Positions 15,688 through 24,826 are shown, counted from the stretch's first letter. The stretch: 64,000 nt of DNA from a plasmid (NZ_CP104760.1), one strand, 5' to 3'. Made by a program: numbers and translations. The notes: a model not told the origin generated them from the sequence alone.

Positions 15688-18090
15688 ATGAACCCGCAAT
15701 CCTTCGACACCGACCGTTTTACCGCCGCGCTTACGCGCCAGTGGCAACGCTTTGGTCTGCGCGACGCGCAGGAGATGAATCCTCAACAGTGGTGGCACGC
15801 ACTCAGCGGCGCGCTGGCCGAGCTGATGGCTGACCTGCCTGCGCAGGCGGCAAACGGGCCACAGCGCCACGTTAACTATCTCTCCATGGAGTTTCTGACC
15901 GGGCGGCTGACGGGAAATAACCTGCTCAACCTGGGCTGGTATCAGCCGGTCAGCGACGCGCTCGCCGGTTGCGGCGTTGACTTGAGCGAGGTGCTGGAGC
16001 GCGAGACCGATCCGGCGCTCGGCAACGGCGGCCTGGGTCGACTGGCGGCCTGTTTTCTCGACGCCATGGCGACCACCGGGCAGCCTGCTATCGGCTACGG
16101 CCTGAACTACCAGTACGGCCTGTTTCGTCAGCATTTTGTCGAGGGCGCGCAGCATGAGCAGCCGGACGACTGGGGGCGTGACCGCTACCCCTGGTTTCGT
16201 CACAACGCCGCGCTGACGGTGCAGGTCGGCCTGGGTGGCAAGGTCACGACGGAGAACGGCCTTCCGCGCTGGGAACCCGCTTTTCTGTTGCAGGGCGAAG
16301 CCTGGGATCTGCCCGTTGTCGGCTACCAGAACGGCGTGATCCAGCCGCTGCGCCTCTGGCAAGCGAAACATGCGCATCCTTTCAATCTGCAACGCTTTAA
16401 CGACGGCGATTTTCTGCGTGCCGAACAGCAGGGTATCGATGCGGAGAAGCTGACGAAGGTGCTCTACCCCAACGACAACCATCTGGCGGGGAAAAAGCTG
16501 CGCCTGATGCAGCAATATTTCCAGTGCGCCTGTACCCTGGCTGATATCCTGCGACGCCATCATCAGGCGGGCCGCGCGATTGAGTCGCTGCCCGACTATG
16601 AGGTGATCCAGCTTAACGATACCCACCCGACGCTGGCGATCCCTGAGCTGCTGCGCCTGCTGCTCGACCAACATCAGCTGTCGTGGGAGCAGGCGTGGCG
16701 CATTACGCAGCGCACCTTCGCCTACACCAACCATACGCTGATGCCGGAAGCGCTGGAGTGCTGGAACCTGCGTCTGGTACGCACGCTGCTGCCGCGCCAT
16801 ATGATGATTATCAACACCATCAACGCACAGCTGAAAAAAGAGGTGGAGGCGCGCTGGCCGGGCAACGAAGCGATCTGGGCGAAGCTGGCGGTAGTGCATA
16901 ATCAGCAGCTGCGCATGGCGAACCTTTGCGTGGTCAGCGGCTTCGCGGTCAATGGCGTAGCGGCCCTACACTCGAAGCTGGTGGTGCAGGACCTCTTTCC
17001 GGCGTATCACGCGCTGTGGCCGGAGAAGTTCCATAACGTCACTAACGGCATCACGCCGCGCCGCTGGATCCAGCAGTGCAACCCGGCGCTGGCCGCGCTG
17101 ATCGGCAAAACCCTACGTCGCCCCTGGCTTAACGATCTGGATGCGCTCAGCGATCTGGCACCGCTGGCGGAGGATGCGGCGTTTCGCGCGGAGTATCGTG
17201 CCATCAAACAGGAGAACAAGGCCGCTCTGACGCGCTGGATCGCCGAACAAACCGGTATTCACGTTCAGCCCGACGCGCTGTTCGACGTACAGATTAAGCG
17301 TTTGCATGAATATAAGCGCCAGCATCTGATGCTGCTGCATATCATCGCCCTGTGGCAAACCCTGGTCAGCGATCCGCAGGCGAACTTGACGCCGCGCGTA
17401 ATGCTGTTCGGTGCCAAAGCAGCGCCGGGCTATGCGCTGGCGAAAAATATCATCTATGCCATCAATAAGGTGGCCGCGGTGGTCAACGCCGATCCGCGCG
17501 TCGGCGATCGCCTTAAAATCGTGTTTATTCCCGACTACAACGTCTCTGTAGCGGAGCGGCTTATCCCGGCCGCCGATCTCTCCGAACAGATCTCTACGGC
17601 AGGCAAAGAGGCTTCCGGCACCGGCAATATGAAGCTGGCGCTCAACGGCGCGCTGACAATTGGCACGCTGGACGGCGCAAATGTGGAGATTGCCCAGCAG
17701 GTCGGCGAGGAGAATATCTTTATTTTCGGTCATACCGTCGAGCAGGTCAGCGCGCTGAAGCAGGCGGGTTACGCACCGACGACGTGGCGTAAAAAAGATC
17801 CGCAGCTTGATCGGGCGCTGACCGCGCTGGAGGACGGTACGTTCAGCGACGGCGACCGGACCGCCTTCGCCGCGCTGACGCGCAGCCTGGGGCCGGAGGG
17901 CGGCGATCCTTATCTGGTGCTGGCCGATTTCCGTCACTATCTCAACGCCCAGCAGCAGGTTGAAGCGCTGTGGGCCGATCGGGACGCCTGGACGCGCGCC
18001 GCTATTCTGAACACCGCGCGCTGCGGCATGTTCAGCGCCGACCGCGCCATCCGCGACTATCAGCAACGCATCTGGCAGGCCGCGCGCTGA
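15688..18090 (+). CDS. malP: maltodextrin phosphorylase MalP
   Basis: 800 aa; collinear with E. coli MalP (glycogen-phosphorylase family, GT35). Confidence 0.95.
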
Positions 18091-18098
18091 GGATCGCC

Positions 18099-20168
18099 AT
18101 GAAACCAAAAAACCACCTTGATCTTGCGGCGGATGGCCTGATTGCGCCTGATTATATTGACGCCCACGGGCGGCCGCAGCAGGTATCTTCCTTTACCCGC
18201 GAGCGGCTGCTGGGGCTGATGCAGCCGTTGAGTGGCAGCGCGTCGCCGCTGCCGCCTGCAGCCATCTTTCGCCAGGGGGAGCCGCTGGCGCTCACGCCGG
18301 TTCTTTTCGCTGCGGCCGACTGGCAGCTGACCAGCGAAGCGGGCGAATGCTGGTCTGGCCGCTGTGCGGTCGGCGAGACGCTTTCGCTGCCGCTTTTGCC
18401 GGATGGCTACCACCAGCTGACGCTGGAGCATGAGGCGCAGCGCTACCGCTGCTGCATTATCGTCGCGCCGCCGCGCTGCTATGAGCCGGCCGCGCTGCTG
18501 GCGGGCGAATCGCTGTGGGGCAGCTGCATTCAGCTTTATACGCTGCGTTCGGCGAATAACTGGGGCATCGGCGACTTTGGCGATCTGCGGCAGATGATCG
18601 GTGAGACGGCGAAACGCGGCGGCGCCTTCGTCGGGCTGAACCCGCTGCACGCCCTCTTTCCTGCCGAGCCGGAGAGCGCCAGTCCTTACAGCCCCTCTTC
18701 CCGCCGCTGGCTCAATATTCTCTACATTGACGTCAACCAGATAGCTGATTTTCAGCAGAGCGACGCGGCGCAAACATGGTGGCGGCTTGAGGCGACGCAG
18801 CAGGCGCTGCAGGCGGCGCGCAGCGCTGAATATGTCGATTACCGCGCCGTGACGCGCCTGAAGCTGGAAGGGTTGCGGCTGGCCTGGCAGCAGTTTCGGC
18901 GTCGCGGCCCAGAGGATGCGGAGACGGCGGCGTTTGATGCCTTCGTCGAGGCGGGCGGCGACAGCCTGCTCAGCCAGGGACTGTTCGATGTGCTGCACGC
19001 CGAGCGGCGCGAGCAGGATAGCGACTGCCACGGCTGGCAAAGCTGGCCGGAAGCCTTTCAGCATCCTGACAGCGCCGCCGTGCTGGCGTTTCGCATCGAA
19101 CAGAGCGACGAGGTGCGCTTCTGGCTCTGGCTACAGTGGCTGGCGGCGCAGCAGTTCGCAGGCTGCTGGCAGCTTTGTCAGCAGCAGCAGATGCCGATTG
19201 GGCTCTATCGCGATCTAGCGGTAGGGGTGGCGCGCGACGGCGCTGAGACATGGCGTGAGCGGGAGCTTTACTGCCTTGAGGCGAGCGTCGGCGCGCCGCC
19301 CGATATTCTTGGCCCGCTGGGGCAAAACTGGGGGCTGCCGCCGATGGATCCGCAGGCAATGGCGGCGCGCGCCTTCGAGCCCTGGATTACGCTGCTGCGT
19401 GCCAGTATGCAGGACTGCGGCGCGTTGCGTATCGACCATGTGATGGCGCTGCTGCGTCTCTGGTGGATCCCGCAGGGCGAAAGCGCGGCTGAAGGTGCCT
19501 ATGTTCACTACCCGGTGGACGCGCTGCTGGCGATCCTGGCGCTGGAGAGTCAGCGCCACCGCTGTATGGTGATAGGCGAAGATTTAGGCACTGTGCCCGC
19601 GGCGATTGTCGATAAGCTGCGCGACGCCGGCGTTTACTCCTACAAGGTGCTCTATTTCGAGCAGACGTCGAAGCAGGCTTTCCGCCCGCCAGCGCAGTGG
19701 CCGCGTCAGGCGATGGCGGTCACCACTACCCACGATATGCCGACTTTGCGCGGCTGGTGGCGAAGCGACGATCTCCGTCTGGGAAGCGAGCTTGGCCTCT
19801 ATCCCGATAAAACCATTCTGGCCGGGCTTTACCGCGACAGACAGACGGCGAGACAAGCGCTGTTGCGAACCCTGCTGCGTAGCGGCGCGCTGCCGTCGCG
19901 TCAGCGGTTTCAGCGCGGCCGCGCGCGTATGACCGGGACGCTCAGCCGGGCGATACTGGGTTATCTGGCGGGGACGCAGAGCGCGCTGCTTGGCCTGCAG
20001 CCGGAAGAGTGGCTGGATATGGCAACACCGGTAAACGTGCCGGGCACCACTGATGCCTATCCCAACTGGCGACGCAAACTCAGCGCAACGCTGGAGGAGA
20101 TGTTCAGCGACGCTGCGGTCGATGCGCTGCTGGCGCAGGTTAACAGAGGCAGAAAAGAGGTTAAGTAG
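18099..20168 (+). CDS. malQ: 4-alpha-glucanotransferase (amylomaltase) MalQ
   Basis: collinear with E. coli MalQ (CYEP...LWGSCIQLYTLRS..NWGIGDFGDL...GLNPLHALFPA.PESASPYSPSSRRWLN); start set to the ATG at 18099 (the ORF track begins inside the malP tail). Confidence 0.95.
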   Translation: MKPKNHLDLAADGLIAPDYIDAHGRPQQVSSFTRERLLGLMQPLSGSASPLPPAAIFRQGEPLALTPVLFAAADWQLTSEAGECWSGRCAVGETLSLPLLPDGYHQLTLEHEAQRYRCCIIVAPPRCYEPAALLAGESLWGSCIQLYTLRSANNWGIGDFGDLRQMIGETAKRGGAFVGLNPLHALFPAEPESASPYSPSSRRWLNILYIDVNQIADFQQSDAAQTWWRLEATQQALQAARSAEYVDYRAVTRLKLEGLRLAWQQFRRRGPEDAETAAFDAFVEAGGDSLLSQGLFDVLHAERREQDSDCHGWQSWPEAFQHPDSAAVLAFRIEQSDEVRFWLWLQWLAAQQFAGCWQLCQQQQMPIGLYRDLAVGVARDGAETWRERELYCLEASVGAPPDILGPLGQNWGLPPMDPQAMAARAFEPWITLLRASMQDCGALRIDHVMALLRLWWIPQGESAAEGAYVHYPVDALLAILALESQRHRCMVIGEDLGTVPAAIVDKLRDAGVYSYKVLYFEQTSKQAFRPPAQWPRQAMAVTTTHDMPTLRGWWRSDDLRLGSELGLYPDKTILAGLYRDRQTARQALLRTLLRSGALPSRQRFQRGRARMTGTLSRAILGYLAGTQSALLGLQPEEWLDMATPVNVPGTTDAYPNWRRKLSATLEEMFSDAAVDALLAQVNRGRKEVK

Positions 20169-20199: not shown

Positions 20200-20439
20200 G
20201 ACTTTCTTGCGCCAGCGATATTCGTGGCGCAGTCGGGCGCCAGGCTAATGCGGCCCTGGTCAACGGCCAGCAGCGATCCTTTCGCTATTCCAGCATCATG
20301 ATAATCAATGGCTTTTCTGACAAATTCTATACATTAAGGCGACAGATGCACTAAACGCCAAAGCTAAAATGCTGCGCTGCATAGCCTGCCACCCTTTGAT
20401 AATTTCAATTTCAGAGGATATAAAGTACGTAATTTCTTC

Positions 20440-21129
20440 TCAAAATAAATCGCTCGTTCCAAATATACGATTAAGGTTCGTTTTCCCAACCTTAGTGACA
20501 AAAACGGCGCGGCTGTTTTTTTTCTTTATAATCCATTCTGATTTAACGAATCGATCTGCAAGAATATTTCCCAGAAAGCCGCCAAGGTGCGGGACGCGTT
20601 CAGTCCAGTCCATACACTGGATTGCAACTTTTTCTGGGATTGACTCCGGGCCAGCTGGAAGCAAATTATGATAGCTAAACCAGTCAGCCCCGTTACTGGT
20701 CAAATGAATAGTCTTAGAATGACCTTCAGTCTGAATGTAATGTAATTCGAGCAACTTTTGATAAATTAAAACGCCAAGATGTCCAGCCAGATGATTAAAA
20801 CAATAACGAGCCTGACATATTTCATTTTCAGGTAACTTCCGGTGTATTCCTTTACTACTGGCAAGATACATAACCGACTCTACAACAGAGGCTACATCAG
20901 AGGAGCTGAGCGTAAAATACTTAAATTTACCTTGCTTAAAGGTTTTCACAAGGCCGCTGTCAACAAGTGCTTTAAGATGAGCCGTTGCGGCTGAAGGCAG
21001 AAGGCCAGTTCCGTATGCCAGCTCTTTTGCCGTGAAATATCGTCCCTCCATCATCAGAACTAACATTTCAAGTCTGCGCTGATTCCCTAAGGCTATAGCT
21101 AACTGATTTAAAACATTTTTATTAAACAT
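20440..21129 (-). CDS. two-domain ArsR/SmtB-like winged-helix regulator (C-terminal Cys/His-rich domain), divergent from the RiPP-like operon
   Basis: 229 aa; N-terminal ArsR-type HTH (RRLEMLVLMMEG..FTAKELAYGTGLLPSAATAHLKALVDSGLV); shares the C-terminal motifs CFNHLAG and CMDWTERVPHLGG with the paralog at 40704-41414. Confidence 0.7.
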   Translation of the reverse strand: MFNKNVLNQLAIALGNQRRLEMLVLMMEGRYFTAKELAYGTGLLPSAATAHLKALVDSGLVKTFKQGKFKYFTLSSSDVASVVESVMYLASSKGIHRKLPENEICQARYCFNHLAGHLGVLIYQKLLELHYIQTEGHSKTIHLTSNGADWFSYHNLLPAGPESIPEKVAIQCMDWTERVPHLGGFLGNILADRFVKSEWIIKKKNSRAVFVTKVGKTNLNRIFGTSDLF

Positions 21130-21191
21130 AGTTCATCCTTGACTGAATGGTTAAAACTTGAAACATATCCTGAAACGTTCTAATTGTATTT

Positions 21192-21212
21192 TTGCATTGT
21201 ATCTAAATGCAA
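21192..21212. promoter_or_regulatory. inverted repeat TTGCATT-N7-AATGCAA in the divergent promoter region; candidate operator
   Basis: seen directly about 40 nt upstream of the sORF ATG. Confidence 0.25.
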
Positions 21213-21248
21213 TACAAGTTTATTTCATTTAATTATAGGGGGTTCATT

Positions 21249-21302
21249 ATGAAATTTACAAAATTTAATGCGTCAAATGCAACTCTGGCTGCTGTAGGTT
21301 GA
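21249..21302 (+). CDS. 17-codon sORF (MKFTKFNASNATLAAVG) with a strong RBS; candidate RiPP precursor peptide
   Basis: AGGGGG 7 nt upstream of the ATG; sits directly upstream of the MccB-like gene in the position mccA occupies; a hairpin follows it as in mcc operons; but it ends in Gly, not the Asn required by canonical MccB. Confidence 0.45.
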   Translation: MKFTKFNASNATLAAVG

Positions 21303-21320
21303 TTTGGCCACTAAGAATTA

Positions 21321-21341
21321 AAGGGCCTGTAACAGGCCCTT
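21321..21341 (+). terminator. stable hairpin (AAGGGCCTG-taa-CAGGCCCTT) between the sORF and the MccB-like gene; partial terminator or attenuator candidate
   Basis: seen directly; analogous to the mccA-mccB intergenic terminator of E. coli microcin C operons; followed by TTCT, not a strong U-tract. Confidence 0.5.
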
Positions 21342-21372
21342 TCTAAGGGATTTAGTTAAAAGGGAGTTTATT

Positions 21373-22476
21373 ATGGATGTCATGAAGGTGTGTCTTAAAC
21401 CTACGGTTCTTTTATACAAAAACAACCCCAATAAAGTAGTGTTAAGGTTCTGTTCAGAAATAATAGAATTTGATGATGAGCGTGGCGATATACGGTTTTT
21501 CTTCGGTTTACTATGTGGAGCGTACACCTCGAAAGAAATCCTTGATGAGTATGCCAAAAAATATCCATATGATTCAGGCAGAGCCAGAGATTATCTGGAT
21601 ACGCTTAATGAACTGAAACTGATTGAACTACAACCTCAGGATTATAGCCCACTAAGTGACGCTCAGAAAGAAAGATATTCGCGAAACTTTGAATTCTTTA
21701 ATTCAGCTTTGCCAGTTGGAATGAACAAATATGGCATTCAGTGTTCCTTACTTGACAGTCGGGTAGTCGTATTAGGATGTGGAGGACTCGGTAGCCATAT
21801 CATTCTTGAACTCGCCGCGTTGGGAGTCGGAAACCTGACTATCGTTGACTTTGATCTGATTGAACTTAGTAACCTGAACAGGCAGATTCTATACAGAGAA
21901 GCAGATCTCGGACGAAAAAAAGTGTTTGCTGCAAGAAATAATGCCCTTACTTTCAACTCCAGTATTAATATCACCCCCGTTGAAAAGAAAATTGAATCAG
22001 TTTTAGATATAAAAGAAATAATTGTTGATCATGATCTTGTAATCTGCGTTGCAGATAAACCGCGAAACAGTATGGTTAAATGGCTTAATGAAGCCTGCTG
22101 CAAAGCAAAGATACCTTACATCAATGGCGGGCTTGATATTCGTAAGGCTGTTTTCTATTCGGTTATCCCTGGTGAAACCGGCTGCACAGAATGCTGGAAA
22201 TCATTTTTGCCCGAACAAAACAGGAAAGTAATCGATGAGGATAGCAGTACCCAAAATGATTATATGACCCCAGCCCCGGCTCTTTCAGCTCTCGTGTCTG
22301 TGACAACGGGCGCTATGATCTGTGAAGCAATTAAACTGTTAACTGATCTACAGCCACCCTCGCTGACAAACAATCTTAAAACCTTCTCTTTTGATGATTT
22401 GACTATCACTACAACTGAAAAGTGGAGGTTAAATCCAGAGTGTCATTGCTGCGAAATTATCGAAGGCCGAAAATGA
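21373..22476 (+). CDS. MccB-like ThiF/HesA/MoeB-family (E1-like) adenylyltransferase with an N-terminal peptide-binding domain
   Basis: 367 aa; RYSRNF motif then Rossmann VVLGCGGLGSHIILELAALGVGNLTIVDFDLIELSNLNRQ; later PYINGG...PGETGCTEC (CxxC) and a C-terminal CHCC, parallel to MccB (RYSRNF...ILGCGGIGNHV...QPYINAG...PGKTGCYEC...CSVC); ~105-aa N-terminal clamp/RRE-like domain. Confidence 0.8.
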   Translation: MDVMKVCLKPTVLLYKNNPNKVVLRFCSEIIEFDDERGDIRFFFGLLCGAYTSKEILDEYAKKYPYDSGRARDYLDTLNELKLIELQPQDYSPLSDAQKERYSRNFEFFNSALPVGMNKYGIQCSLLDSRVVVLGCGGLGSHIILELAALGVGNLTIVDFDLIELSNLNRQILYREADLGRKKVFAARNNALTFNSSINITPVEKKIESVLDIKEIIVDHDLVICVADKPRNSMVKWLNEACCKAKIPYINGGLDIRKAVFYSVIPGETGCTECWKSFLPEQNRKVIDEDSSTQNDYMTPAPALSALVSVTTGAMICEAIKLLTDLQPPSLTNNLKTFSFDDLTITTTEKWRLNPECHCCEIIEGRK

Positions 22477-23642
22477 ACAAACTTATTTTATCTTATGCCA
22501 ACACTTCTTTTGGCTTCTGGTTGATATCATTTCTTATACCACTCATTGTTCTTGACATTAGTGGTTCAGCTTTTCTTGTCTCTCTTTCCTATGCGCTGAA
22601 TGTTTTTCCTTATATAGTAATAACCCCTCTCGCAGGGGTTGTTTGTGATACATATAACAGGAAAAATATCATTATGGCAGGGGAGTTATTTTGCTGTATT
22701 ACATCATTGTTACTGTTTTTTATTATCGATTTTAACCCTTCTGCTTATCTTGTTATAGGGCTAGGTTTTATTGTCTCATCCTTGTCAGCGATGCATCACC
22801 CTGTTTTTCAGTCGTTGATACCTGACCTGTATGAGCAAAATGAAATCAAGAATATTAACGCAAGCGTTGGCGTTATCGACAGCACCGTCAGTATACTTGC
22901 TCCGGTTATTTTAGGGGCGTTATTCTATAAATTCTCTAAGCAATCCGCATTGCTCCTTGTTACCCTTTGTTATTTTTTATCTTTTATAACCATTTTAACT
23001 ATACCTTATCACGGTCATAAGTCACAGGCGATATTGTCTTTGCAACACATCTGGGGTTCTTTACGGAAAGGTTTTGAATATGTCTTACATCAGAAAGCGT
23101 TATTCAATTTATCCTGCCTTTTTTTCTTTATTAATATGGGTATCAGGGTTATATTCCCCAACCTGATTTGGATTTATAGCGCCCAGTTTCATTTGAGCTC
23201 AGAGCAAATTGCTATAATGTTTGTGATTATTGGATTTGGCTCTATTTTAGGTGCGCGCATCGGGGCAGCTCTAATTGGACGGTTTGCCGATGTTTCTATC
23301 ATTATCTATTGCTCAATGATCATTGGCTTATGCAGTATACTGTTACTGGCCGCAAATAGTGCTCTGATGCACGCCATTACCTGGGCACTATCATCTTTAG
23401 TTCAATCGATTATTGTTGTTACCTATTTTACCTACAGACAAAAAGTCACAGAGCCTTATATACTCGGGAGAGTAGTATCAGTTACAAGATTAATATCTTA
23501 TATGGCTATACCTCTGGCTTCGGTATCAAGTGGCTGGGCAATATCAGTTTATGACTCTGTAACTGTTATTTATATTTTCAGCGCGCTGGTAATTCTGGTG
23601 CCGCTTTTATTCTATTGGCTGGCTACTCGAAAAGCAGTCTGA
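22473..23642 (+). CDS. MFS-family efflux transporter (MccC/PaaC-like exporter), translationally coupled (ATGA overlap) to the E1-like gene
   Basis: ~389 aa hydrophobic protein with 12 predicted TM segments; start ATG 22473 overlaps the TGA of the upstream gene. Confidence 0.8.
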   Translation: MNKLILSYANTSFGFWLISFLIPLIVLDISGSAFLVSLSYALNVFPYIVITPLAGVVCDTYNRKNIIMAGELFCCITSLLLFFIIDFNPSAYLVIGLGFIVSSLSAMHHPVFQSLIPDLYEQNEIKNINASVGVIDSTVSILAPVILGALFYKFSKQSALLLVTLCYFLSFITILTIPYHGHKSQAILSLQHIWGSLRKGFEYVLHQKALFNLSCLFFFINMGIRVIFPNLIWIYSAQFHLSSEQIAIMFVIIGFGSILGARIGAALIGRFADVSIIIYCSMIIGLCSILLLAANSALMHAITWALSSLVQSIIVVTYFTYRQKVTEPYILGRVVSVTRLISYMAIPLASVSSGWAISVYDSVTVIYIFSALVILVPLLFYWLATRKAV

Positions 23643-23854
23643 AAGGTAAGAAGTCATTTCAATGCCTGCCTTTGGCAGGCCTGATGGTAAGAAATTAATC
23701 CTCTAAGATCTGGTGCTTTAAGCCTTGTAAATACTCCCTTTTGCTATGTTTTCATCGCCTCAGATTCCTGAGACTGAGCCGATGAAAAAGAAGAACAACC
23801 CTACGCCCTCACCATCCGTTCCCTGATAGCGATTAACCTCTCCGCAGTCGCTCA

Positions 23855-23911: not shown

Positions 23912-24826
23912 TCACCCCTTGCCTTTAACACTGCTGATAAAGGTTTTACGCGCCGACGTCGAACCCAGTCGTTCCGCCTCGTCCAGCAGCCTGAGCGCCT
24001 TGTCGATATTGCCCTGATCCACCGCCTGACGAATGCTCTGATTAAAGTAACTTTCGGTGTCGCTCACCAGCGGCGCCGACGGCGTCGCGGGCGCGGTACG
24101 GACCGTCGCCTGCGTAACCGGCTGAGCGCTGCCGATCGTGACCGGCGCCGGGCTGGCGGAGCCAAACAGCGGGCCGACCAGAATCGAGGAGGCGGAGCTG
24201 GTAGAGACTTTCAGCTTAATCTTGCCGTCTACGCCGTGACGCGCGACGGGATCGGGAATATCGGGCACCGCATGGCCGGTGCCTCTGGCGTAGGCTTTTG
24301 CCGGATCGACCAGCGTGGTGGTCTGGTTGAGATCCTGCGCGGTGGTGAAGACCAGCAGATAAATTTTCTGCTGACCCGGCGCGGGCGTCAGCTTCATCAC
24401 CCCTTCCAGACGGTCGGCGCTCATGACGCCCGGCTGCTGATAGGTAAAAAAGCGGCTCGGAAACCAGGCGGCGGGACGCAGATTCTCGTCAAGCACCAGC
24501 ACGTTAGGGGCGAATACCTGATTGTGCGACACTTCGCTGCTCAGCGTTACCGTCATTTCGCCCTGGCTGGCGGGCAGGCTGTAGGCGGCGACCGGCCCGG
24601 TGATGCCGCTGGCCTCAAGCTGGGTACCGCTGGTGGCCAGCGTGGTGATCTGTGGACGCGAAGCATCAACGGGCTGCCAGTTCAGGCGCTGCAGGCTCGC
24701 TGTCGGAATAGTGGGCGCGGCAGAGAGATCCTGCGGCACCAGATTGATCTCAGCATGCGCTGGCAAGGCGAGGCTCGTCAGCAGCGCGGCGCTCAGACAG
24801 AGCGCGGTAAGCGTTTTCTTTTTCAT
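23912..24826 (-). CDS. malM: maltose operon periplasmic protein MalM
   Basis: 304 aa; collinear with E. coli MalM (LDEAERLGSTSAR.TFISSVKGKG C-terminus). Confidence 0.9.
   Translation of the reverse strand: MKKKTLTALCLSAALLTSLALPAHAEINLVPQDLSAAPTIPTASLQRLNWQPVDASRPQITTLATSGTQLEASGITGPVAAYSLPASQGEMTVTLSSEVSHNQVFAPNVLVLDENLRPAAWFPSRFFTYQQPGVMSADRLEGVMKLTPAPGQQKIYLLVFTTAQDLNQTTTLVDPAKAYARGTGHAVPDIPDPVARHGVDGKIKLKVSTSSASSILVGPLFGSASPAPVTIGSAQPVTQATVRTAPATPSAPLVSDTESYFNQSIRQAVDQGNIDKALRLLDEAERLGSTSARKTFISSVKGKG

Follow-up and report, generated by a model that had tools for sequence, protein, structure and literature searches.

A mobile cassette on a Pantoea piersonii plasmid pairs an MccB-type E1 enzyme with a conserved short peptide and probably represents an uncharacterised family sister to the microcin C systems

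We analysed a 64,000-nt stretch (the window) of a 261,771-bp plasmid of Pantoea piersonii (NZ_CP104760.1), the proteins of which match the database entries residue for residue. Between the maltose genes malQ and malM it carries four genes, namely a divergently transcribed regulator gene, a 17-codon short open reading frame (sORF) encoding MKFTKFNASNATLAAVG, a gene for an MccB-type E1 enzyme, and a gene for a major facilitator superfamily (MFS) transporter. We consider it probable, with some reserve, that this cassette is a minimal, horizontally mobile operon for a peptide, synthesised ribosomally and modified post-translationally (RiPP), of an uncharacterised family sister to the microcin C systems, in which the E1 would activate the C-terminus of the peptide and a nucleophile, most likely an intramolecular one, would then resolve the intermediate. 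The cassette belongs to a large and discrete family with a broad phylogenetic range and is not a Pantoea oddity. A first-pass annotation of the same DNA had described its architecture as microcin C/pantocin-like; the minimal mccABC-like gene order holds, but the only likeness to pantocin A lies in the fold of the E1, and the transporter does not appear to be an MccC orthologue.

The precursor gene (21249-21302, plus strand) has a Shine-Dalgarno sequence, AGGGGG, at 21237-21242, 6 nt before its ATG, and is followed by a hairpin, in agreement with the arrangement of a 17-codon sORF, a strong ribosome-binding site and a hairpin that had been read at first pass. The sORF is apparently unannotated in the source record, because the protein accessions of the regulator and the E1 are consecutive (WBG93455.1 and WBG93456.1). 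The encoded peptide ends in ...AAVG, contains neither Asp nor Glu, and has Asn at position -11 from the C-terminus. As had been pointed out, it lacks a C-terminal Asn, and its product is therefore probably not a canonical peptidyl-nucleotide. The calculated mass of the peptide is 1769.913 in the linear and 1797.908 in the formylated form, or 1751.903 and 1779.898, respectively, after loss of water.

A genome-wide scan gave 80 loci, and the approximately 45 with an E1 closest to the query make up the precursor family. These loci come from at least six phyla, and each has, ahead of the E1 gene, an open reading frame of 15-19 amino acids with a good ribosome-binding site. We searched for the C-terminal motif [ST]xA[GSTN]x5-end in ATG-initiated sORFs on the same strand, at most 420 nt upstream of the E1 gene, and found it in approximately 45 loci (53 matches including nested start codons). 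Only 36 matches occur in the whole 1.13 Mb on both strands, and several of these are extra precursor copies. As estimated from the match counts and the amount of sequence searched, the motif is enriched approximately 80-fold upstream of E1 genes relative to the rest of the 1.13 Mb. This conservation is far beyond chance and, at the level of sequence, marks the sORF as a conserved precursor. Loci with a precursor and an E1 are found in Proteobacteria, Bacteroidota, Cyanobacteria, Actinomycetota, and Bacillota, and the peptide family occurs in Salmonella, Xenorhabdus, Histophilus, Vibrio, Pseudomonas, Burkholderia, Legionella/Coxiellaceae, Streptococcus mitis, Streptomyces, Nostoc, Bacteroidota, and Rickettsiales endosymbionts.

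When the 43 distinct peptides are anchored at the C-terminus, position -9 is Ser in 39 and Thr in 3, position -7 is Ala in 38, position -6 is Gly in 28, and the last residue is Gly in 34. The other C-terminal residues are N, T, S, A, L, F, and Y. The spacing from Ser to the C-terminus is fixed and the length of the N-terminal part varies; Lys is common in the N-terminal half and occupies position -11 in 21 of the 43, and none of them contains Trp. Representative precursors are those of Salmonella (MKFTKHATSNAKLALVG), Xenorhabdus (MKVTKVKASNAGIADVG), Histophilus somni (MKFKKYQASDAKLASVG), Pseudomonas (MTFEKASSAGDSQIG), Streptomyces (MTVALRVRKTSIAGQSNEG), Streptococcus mitis (MLKQKRVHSASIAGIAVEG), and Legionella (MEFEVDFIPVSLAGSAVPY). 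Two loci carry three identical tandem precursor genes, each with its own ribosome-binding site: in Vibrio mangrovi (L095 3543-3882; MAIKFTKASNATLSAVG) they lie 143 nt apart, and in Nostoc calcicola (L008 5445-5810; MKVRIHKATFAGRSAVG) 156 nt apart. N-terminally padded precursor peptides matched no NCBIfam or Pfam model, and no description of a precursor family of the type S-x-A-G...Gly was found in the literature covered, which leaves out subscription journals.

The E1 (WBG93456.1; 21373-22476, plus strand) has 367 amino acids, with an N-terminal peptide-clamp domain resembling a RiPP recognition element (RRE) at about residues 1-95 and an adenylation domain with a Cys4 site. The motifs reported at first pass can be read in the translation, namely ERYSRNF (residues 100-106), LGCGGLGSH (134-142), C271-x2-C274, and C357/C360. 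Across 92 homologues, R101, R104, N105, GxGGxG, D161, N169-R170-Q171, K183, D228, C271, and C274 are invariant or nearly so, and C357 and C360 are conserved at 90% or more. The Pfam ThiF domain covers residues 123-358 (E=5.9e-50). Whether the protein belongs with MccB or with the sulfur-carrier activators MoeB and ThiF had been set beforehand as the test of the first-pass reading, and sequence, fold, and family scores all favour the MccB type. The best sequence match in the PDB is MccB (129 bits, E 1.9e-36, residues 88-360, 32.5% identity over 277 amino acids), followed by MoeB (E 4e-26) and by PaaA, which matches residues 75-202 only (71 bits, E 9e-19). An AlphaFold2 model built with the 92 homologues (pLDDT 95.1, pTM 0.92) superposes on MccB in Foldseek over approximately 360 columns including the N-terminal clamp (TM-score 0.80), as expected from the proposed peptide-clamp domain, and on PaaA with a TM-score of 0.71; the matches to MoeB and ThiF (0.56-0.60) extend over approximately 270 columns, corresponding to the adenylation domain only. 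The NCBIfam equivalogs score far below their cut-offs (MoeB, 123 bits versus 449; ThiF, 120 versus 275). The E1 is thus of the MccB type and not of the MoeB/ThiF type, and the fold match together with the conserved nucleotide/Mg2+ and CxxC...CxxC residues predicts a catalytically competent peptide-modifying enzyme of the MccB/PaaA type.

The E1s encoded next to family peptides score a median of 196-307 bits among themselves and 92-142 bits against E. coli MccB, and the other E1 loci score 126-190 bits against the precursor-linked group. Judged by these sequence scores, the precursor-linked E1s form a discrete clade separate from MccB. A phmmer search with the 100-amino-acid N-terminal clamp against 1.8 billion representatives returned only 5 matches. 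Three of them (P0187, P0189, and P0190), considered as clamp homologues, were rejected as likely compositional or repeat artefacts, being repeat proteins of 1000-2000 amino acids with 7-9 matched stretches; the clamp sequence is too divergent for this search to size the family. A different ThiF-family enzyme, 32% identical over its full length, is encoded on P. agglomerans plasmid pNBBC01-5 (L093; NZ_CP099733.1, 7640-16734). Its neighbours encode an EctB-like transaminase, a TauD/TfdA dioxygenase, a GNAT protein, a CapA-family protein, an ATP-grasp protein, and a PurD-like ligase, and the locus looks like a non-RiPP small-molecule cluster.

The MFS transporter (WBG93457.1; 22473-23642, plus strand), a 389-amino-acid product identical to the NCBI annotation, is of the EntS-Mef-like type (MFS_3/TIGR00900). 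Its start codon overlaps the TGA of the E1 gene in an ATGA, and the translational coupling that had been proposed from this overlap is evident in the sequence. A homologous transporter (24-37% identity) lies directly downstream of the E1 gene in nearly all family loci, so E1 and MFS genes are inherited together. The transporter is presumed to serve export and self-protection. BLASTP against E. coli MccC gives an E value of 0.8; by sequence it does not appear to be an MccC orthologue, although the gene is adjacent to the E1 gene and coupled to it and the role is probably analogous. Between the precursor and the E1 gene lies a 10-bp stem-loop (AAAGGGCCTG-TAA-CAGGCCCTTT; 21320-21342, plus strand). 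Strong hairpins of unrelated sequence occupy the same position in all eight lineages that were folded. The stem-loop is a putative attenuator or transcript stabiliser. In mcc operons, the hairpin at the equivalent position is said to have been described by Zukher and colleagues in 2014 as a ribosome-controlled partial terminator.

The cassette is an accessory and mobile element. The maltose genes in the flanks comprise malP (15688-18090), malQ (ending at 20168), and malM (23912-24826, minus strand), as well as lamB and malK, and the G+C content falls from 0.60-0.67 in these flanks to 0.36-0.42 across approximately 20300-23700. Three sister contigs (L089-L091) encode an identical LamB and carry genes for MazE and a PIN-domain toxin between malM and malQ. 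In a blastn comparison with the first of these (L089), the window is 98.6% identical up to 20239 and 99.3% identical from 23853 on, and between the breakpoints it has 3613 bp in place of a 729-bp MazE/PIN module (11393-12121 in L089). Both breakpoints (20239/20240 and 23852/23853) fall just inside two convergent terminators, and the AT-rich variable segment (20240-23852) lies between the terminators of malQ and malM. The comparison of maltose-locus synteny confirms the insertion postulated at first pass, and the segment is a strain-specific replacement that the sister strains lack. Its limits had been placed at 20290 and 23750 and need slight revision. The four genes also occur together, amid unrelated genomic surroundings, on a metagenomic contig (L081), at 80.6% nucleotide identity over 3218 bp. 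Because this identity spans 20426-23638 in the window, these positions delimit the mobile unit. The two versions of the precursor gene differ by five synonymous substitutions and one non-synonymous substitution. The order regulator-sORF-E1-MFS recurs at other sites, on Salmonella plasmids (next to KfrA and ParDE), on the [Enterobacter] lignolyticus chromosome, and in Xenorhabdus bovienii. Megablast of the island against PLSDB gave no match, and a protein-mode search of the same database returned only 55%-identical Salmonella plasmid copies and true mcc plasmids. The gap between malQ and malM is a hot spot for cargo, which is a RiPP-type cassette here and a MazE antitoxin/PIN toxin pair in the sister strains. 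Two pieces of approximately 200 bp each (20240-20425 and 23639-23852) belong to the variable segment but not to the cassette that L081 has in common with the window. Neither piece has a counterpart in the sister strain or in L081, the left one starts GC-rich like the host, and no integrase, insertion sequence element, or repeat was seen in either. The 3.6-kb segment contains no further biosynthetic open reading frame and the island no ThiS/MoaD gene, in line with the earlier statement that mccDEF and paaB homologues are missing.

We propose the following route. The 17-residue peptide MKFTKFNASNATLAAVG would be translated from the unannotated sORF, and the intercistronic hairpin probably keeps the precursor message in excess of the enzyme message. 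The N-terminal clamp of the E1 would bind the peptide, and the enzyme would adenylate the alpha-carboxylate of Gly17 with ATP/Mg2+. E1 enzymes adenylate carboxylates, and since the peptide has no Asp or Glu, the Gly17 alpha-carboxylate is the only possible substrate group; C-terminal adenylation is the step in which we place high confidence. Without a C-terminal Asn, the MccB route through a succinimide to an N-P bond is closed to this peptide. The peptidyl-AMP would instead be resolved by another nucleophile, for which the near-invariant Ser at -9 (Ser9) is the likeliest candidate; its attack would close a C-terminal macrolactone of 9 residues, leave a tail of 8 residues, and entail a loss of 18 Da. 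The Ser9-Gly17 ester is proposed because Ser at -9 is the only nucleophilic side chain conserved in the C-terminal register. The last residue varies among family members (G, N, T, S, A, L, F, or Y), which argues against side-chain chemistry at this residue and fits a chemistry that needs only the alpha-carboxylate. We rate some form of intramolecular cyclisation as an even prospect, and the Ser9-Gly17 ester specifically as a tentative choice that may well be wrong. The coupled MFS transporter would export the product and protect the producer, and the divergent ArsR-type regulator would control the operon. Relevant precedents exist, as E. coli MccB O-AMPylates MccA-N7G/A/S/T, the acyl-AMP then being captured by other nucleophiles (PMC11118369), and in GrcB, IndF, and EnfB an adenylated carboxylate is resolved by a cis nucleophile (PMC12250964, PMC12150305, PMC12596934).

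Several points weigh against this proposal. All of its chemical steps are inferred, and Ser9 might be conserved at a constant distance from the C-terminus for recognition by the clamp and for reach into the active site, much as MccA keeps a fixed length of 7 residues, and not as a nucleophile. One family member (L007) has Leu at -9, and the literature surveyed holds no precedent for an ester-linked macrocycle made by a ThiF-like enzyme. Two members (L002 and L005) end in Asn, and MccB-type chemistry is conceivable for them. Genes for a peptidase or for tailoring are missing from the Pantoea cassette, and a consensus scan of the plus strand upstream of the sORF gave no convincing promoter.

A different intramolecular nucleophile may resolve the peptidyl-AMP, either a backbone amide (giving a macrocyclic imide or a C-terminal oxazolone), a Lys side chain (a lactam), or the N-terminal amine (head-to-tail closure). 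EnfB is reported to make an imide with a backbone amide and OxzB makes oxazolones (PMC12250964, PMC12596934), and the frequent Lys in the N-terminal half, found at -11 in about half of the peptides (21/43), would be at hand. However, no Lys is conserved in the C-terminal register, the peptide of the window has Asn at -11, and the EnfB structure is itself considered unconfirmed (PMC12150305, PMC12596934); we regard this group of outcomes as rather unlikely. Intermolecular capture of the activated C-terminus by an amine, a thiol, or another nucleophile, which would yield an amidated, thioesterified, or conjugated linear peptide, appears unlikely to us. It is in keeping with the amidation of the EnfB substrate by exogenous amines (PMC11256085), with the capture of MccA-N7G by thiols, hydroxylamines, and hydrazines in the MccB reaction, and with the C-terminal Gly that is a hallmark of E1 substrates passed onward (both PMC11118369), but the conserved core of precursor, E1, and MFS includes no gene for a donor nucleophile or for a ligase or E2-like partner, and the near-invariance of Ser at -9 would have no explanation.

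That the cassette is a true microcin C-type Trojan-horse system making a peptidyl-nucleotide phosphoramidate is suggested by the gene order (short peptide, hairpin, MccB-type E1, MFS), by MccB being the closest solved structure, and by the two family members that end in Asn. We consider it very improbable, since 34 of the 43 peptides, including that of the window, end in Gly, replacement of Asn7 leaves MccB with no N-P product (PMC11118369), the peptide has 17 residues and not 7, the MFS shows no significant similarity to MccC, and the E1 clade is separate from MccB. The view that the E1 is a housekeeping sulfur-carrier activator of the MoeB/ThiF kind or an inactive docking domain, the sORF being fortuitous, is effectively refuted. 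It could draw on the NCBI name, which is just "ThiF family adenylyltransferase", and on MoeB/ThiF models being the top NCBIfam matches. Genuine MccB bears the same generic name, though, and the scores of those models are far below the cut-offs; the additional N-terminal clamp matches MccB and PaaA, a ThiS/MoaD, rhodanese, or YcaO partner is absent, conservation of the sORF extends across phyla, and the accessory island is missing from the sister strains. The window E1 likewise differs from the MoeB/ThiF sulfur-carrier type in falling short of the family cut-off, lacking a ThiS/MoaD partner, and carrying a clamp.

The microcin C operon mccABC (MccB, PDB 3H5A and 6OM4) shares with the cassette a tiny precursor gene, an intercistronic hairpin, a clamp-bearing E1, and an overlapping MFS gene, and MccB is both the best sequence and the best structural match to the window E1, with the same ATP/Mg and Zn-Cys4 residues. 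It differs in having a 7-residue precursor ending in Asn, whereas that of the window has 17 residues, ends in Gly, and contains an internal S-x-A motif; in addition, the clamp of the window E1 cannot be aligned to that of MccB by sequence, and the cassette has no mccD/E/F. In MccB chemistry, the C-terminal Asn of the precursor is required for the succinimide and the N-P bond (PMC11118369, PMC4010828). A phosphoramidate product is thus not expected, given the differences in precursor, exporter, and E1 clade. The lack of mccDEF is not exceptional, as the minimal mccABC set is the usual form of the cluster, and MccB presents its peptide across the homodimer interface (PMC6385645). On E. coli plasmid MccC7-H22 (L092 4189-6527), RefSeq calls the genuine MccB a "ThiF family adenylyltransferase" and MccC an "MFS transporter"; with the same labels in use and mccA-type sORFs going unannotated, annotation cannot tell microcin C from systems of the window type. 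Pantocin A (PaaPABC, Pantoea agglomerans) comes from the same genus, and its cluster has an E1 with an N-terminal RRE-like domain (PaaA) and an exporter. It differs in its Glu-Glu-Asn precursor core and its PaaB oxygenase, neither of which the cassette has, and in the acidic residues that the window precursor lacks; nor does the cassette encode a PaaA orthologue together with PaaB.

By its gene content, the cassette falls within the broad class of ThiF-like adenylyltransferase (TLAT or RRE-ThiF) RiPPs as defined in PMC12150305 and PMC12250964, with a clamp-fused ThiF enzyme, a conserved short precursor, and a transporter. In the enterofaecin system (EnfA/EnfB, WWIII type; PMC11256085), the precursor has approximately 21 residues, no dedicated peptidase is present, and EnfB, which is of the RRE-ThiF type, closes a ring by activating the C-terminal carboxylate and eliminating water, as is proposed for the window E1. 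The (V/I)RKA motif in the enterofaecin leader is similar to the R-K-[AT]-S segment found in Gram-positive family members, and a 26-amino-acid stretch of EnfB deduced from published primers (VDYDIVELGNLHRQFLYRENDIGKKK) resembles VDFDLIELSNLNRQILYREADLGRKK of the window E1, a similarity to be taken as a lead only. EnfA differs in ending in WWIVI and relying on two Trp, and its cluster has ATP-binding cassette (ABC) transporters and quorum-sensing regulators. No Trp-rich EnfA/IndA-like peptide (WWIVI or NWYFI core) was found upstream of an E1 gene in the fetched loci. Among several precursor types that Wang et al. (2024) listed as uncharacterised is "VEGR" (PMC11256085), which, compared by description, differs from the window type in ending strictly in Arg and in having ABC transporters and quorum-sensing regulators. 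For IndF (indolylamide) and GrcB (thiolactone), carboxylate adenylation followed by attack of a side chain of the same peptide has been proposed (PMC12150305, PMC12250964). Their nucleophiles are the Trp indole N and the Cys thiol, respectively, their precursors are longer with cleaved leaders, and GrcB occurs alongside radical S-adenosylmethionine enzymes; IndF, in a sequence derived by optical character recognition, is distant from the window E1 (65 bits over 116 amino acids). Many MccB/PaaA-family genes had been found without an identifiable Asn-containing precursor peptide (Bantysh et al., 2014; PMC4010828), and 27,400 RRE-ThiF candidates have been listed (Rajput et al., 2025; PMC12150305).

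The regulator (WBG93455.1; 20440-21129, minus strand) has 229 amino acids and matches Pfam HTH_5 (1.3e-7) and NCBIfam HTH_metalloreg (1.1e-11), which bears out its designation as ArsR-like. Its N-terminal approximately 90 residues have the winged-helix ArsR/SmtB fold, and only this part of the AlphaFold2 model matches CzrA/HlyU/SmtB. The C-terminal half (residues 100-229) is an internal duplication of two beta-beta-alpha-beta-beta-alpha units, in which the alignment shows invariant C110, H113, C172, and H181 (Cys-x2-His and Cys...His pairs) and a DW.E motif; it matches no Pfam model and, by sequence or fold, no PDB entry, and may be a metal-binding or redox/ligand-sensing module. The regulator recurs in Enterobacterales, syntenic homologues are found in L081, L083, L085, and L087, and an HTH_20 regulator of the same type lies upstream of the E1 gene in a Burkholderia locus (L096). 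In Pediococcus cellicola (L063 2113-5444), homologues of the regulator and the MFS (33% each) stand together near a more distant E1 (32%), so the pairing of regulator and pump may predate, or move apart from, this E1 clade. The divergent control region (21130-21248) holds the Shine-Dalgarno sequence of the sORF, an 11-nt inverted repeat (21204-21214/21221-21231), and blocks conserved with L081; a minus-strand promoter-like site is located at 21261-21232.

Some family clusters contain additional enzymes. An M3 (oligopeptidase F-like) peptidase is added in Streptomyces and Burkholderia clusters, and a haem-oxygenase-like iron oxidase of the PqqC-TENA type in Pseudomonas, Amoebophilaceae, and Burkholderia clusters. 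The clusters extended by a peptidase and/or an oxidase are L096 4001-9092 (Burkholderia ubonensis), L012, L018, L022, and L029 (Streptomyces and an actinobacterial metagenome-assembled genome), and L001 and L007. The peptidase and the oxidase are candidates for leader-peptidase and tailoring steps, which the Pantoea cassette lacks. Furthermore, an ABM monooxygenase is added in L081, L082, and L083, and a methyltransferase in the ...AVAT subgroup.

A growing range of peptide chemistry comes from ThiF-like (E1-type) enzymes, for which five reaction types are known: phosphoramidate, indolizidinone, thiolactone, imide, and indolylamide. The Gly-ending family described here probably uses a chemistry different from that of microcin C. 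It spans a very wide range of taxa, pathogens and symbionts among them. Because the precursor genes are below annotation thresholds, databases show its clusters as no more than "ThiF family adenylyltransferase + MFS transporter". The family is minimal, with one enzyme, one 17-residue peptide, and one pump, and should thus be easy to reconstitute. Definition of the product would add, or firmly exclude, a sixth ThiF-like chemistry. It would also reveal the way in which peptides ending in Gly are handled by a clamp of the MccB type, a question relevant to E1 evolution and to MccB-based tools for C-terminal ligation of proteins. The plasmid-borne, horizontally mobile cassette might moreover yield a new antibiotic of narrow spectrum or a new signal. 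We see a serious possibility, somewhat short of probable, that these loci represent an unrecognised and very widespread RiPP class, in which an MccB-fold E1 acts on Gly-ending peptides of 15-19 residues and forms a linkage new for ThiF-like enzymes, such as a Ser-O-acyl C-terminal macrolactone (a lariat depsipeptide). Ubiquitin-like proteins also end in Gly, and such a class, if real, would be a natural bridge between the ubiquitin-type activation of a C-terminal Gly and the microcin-type peptide antibiotics.

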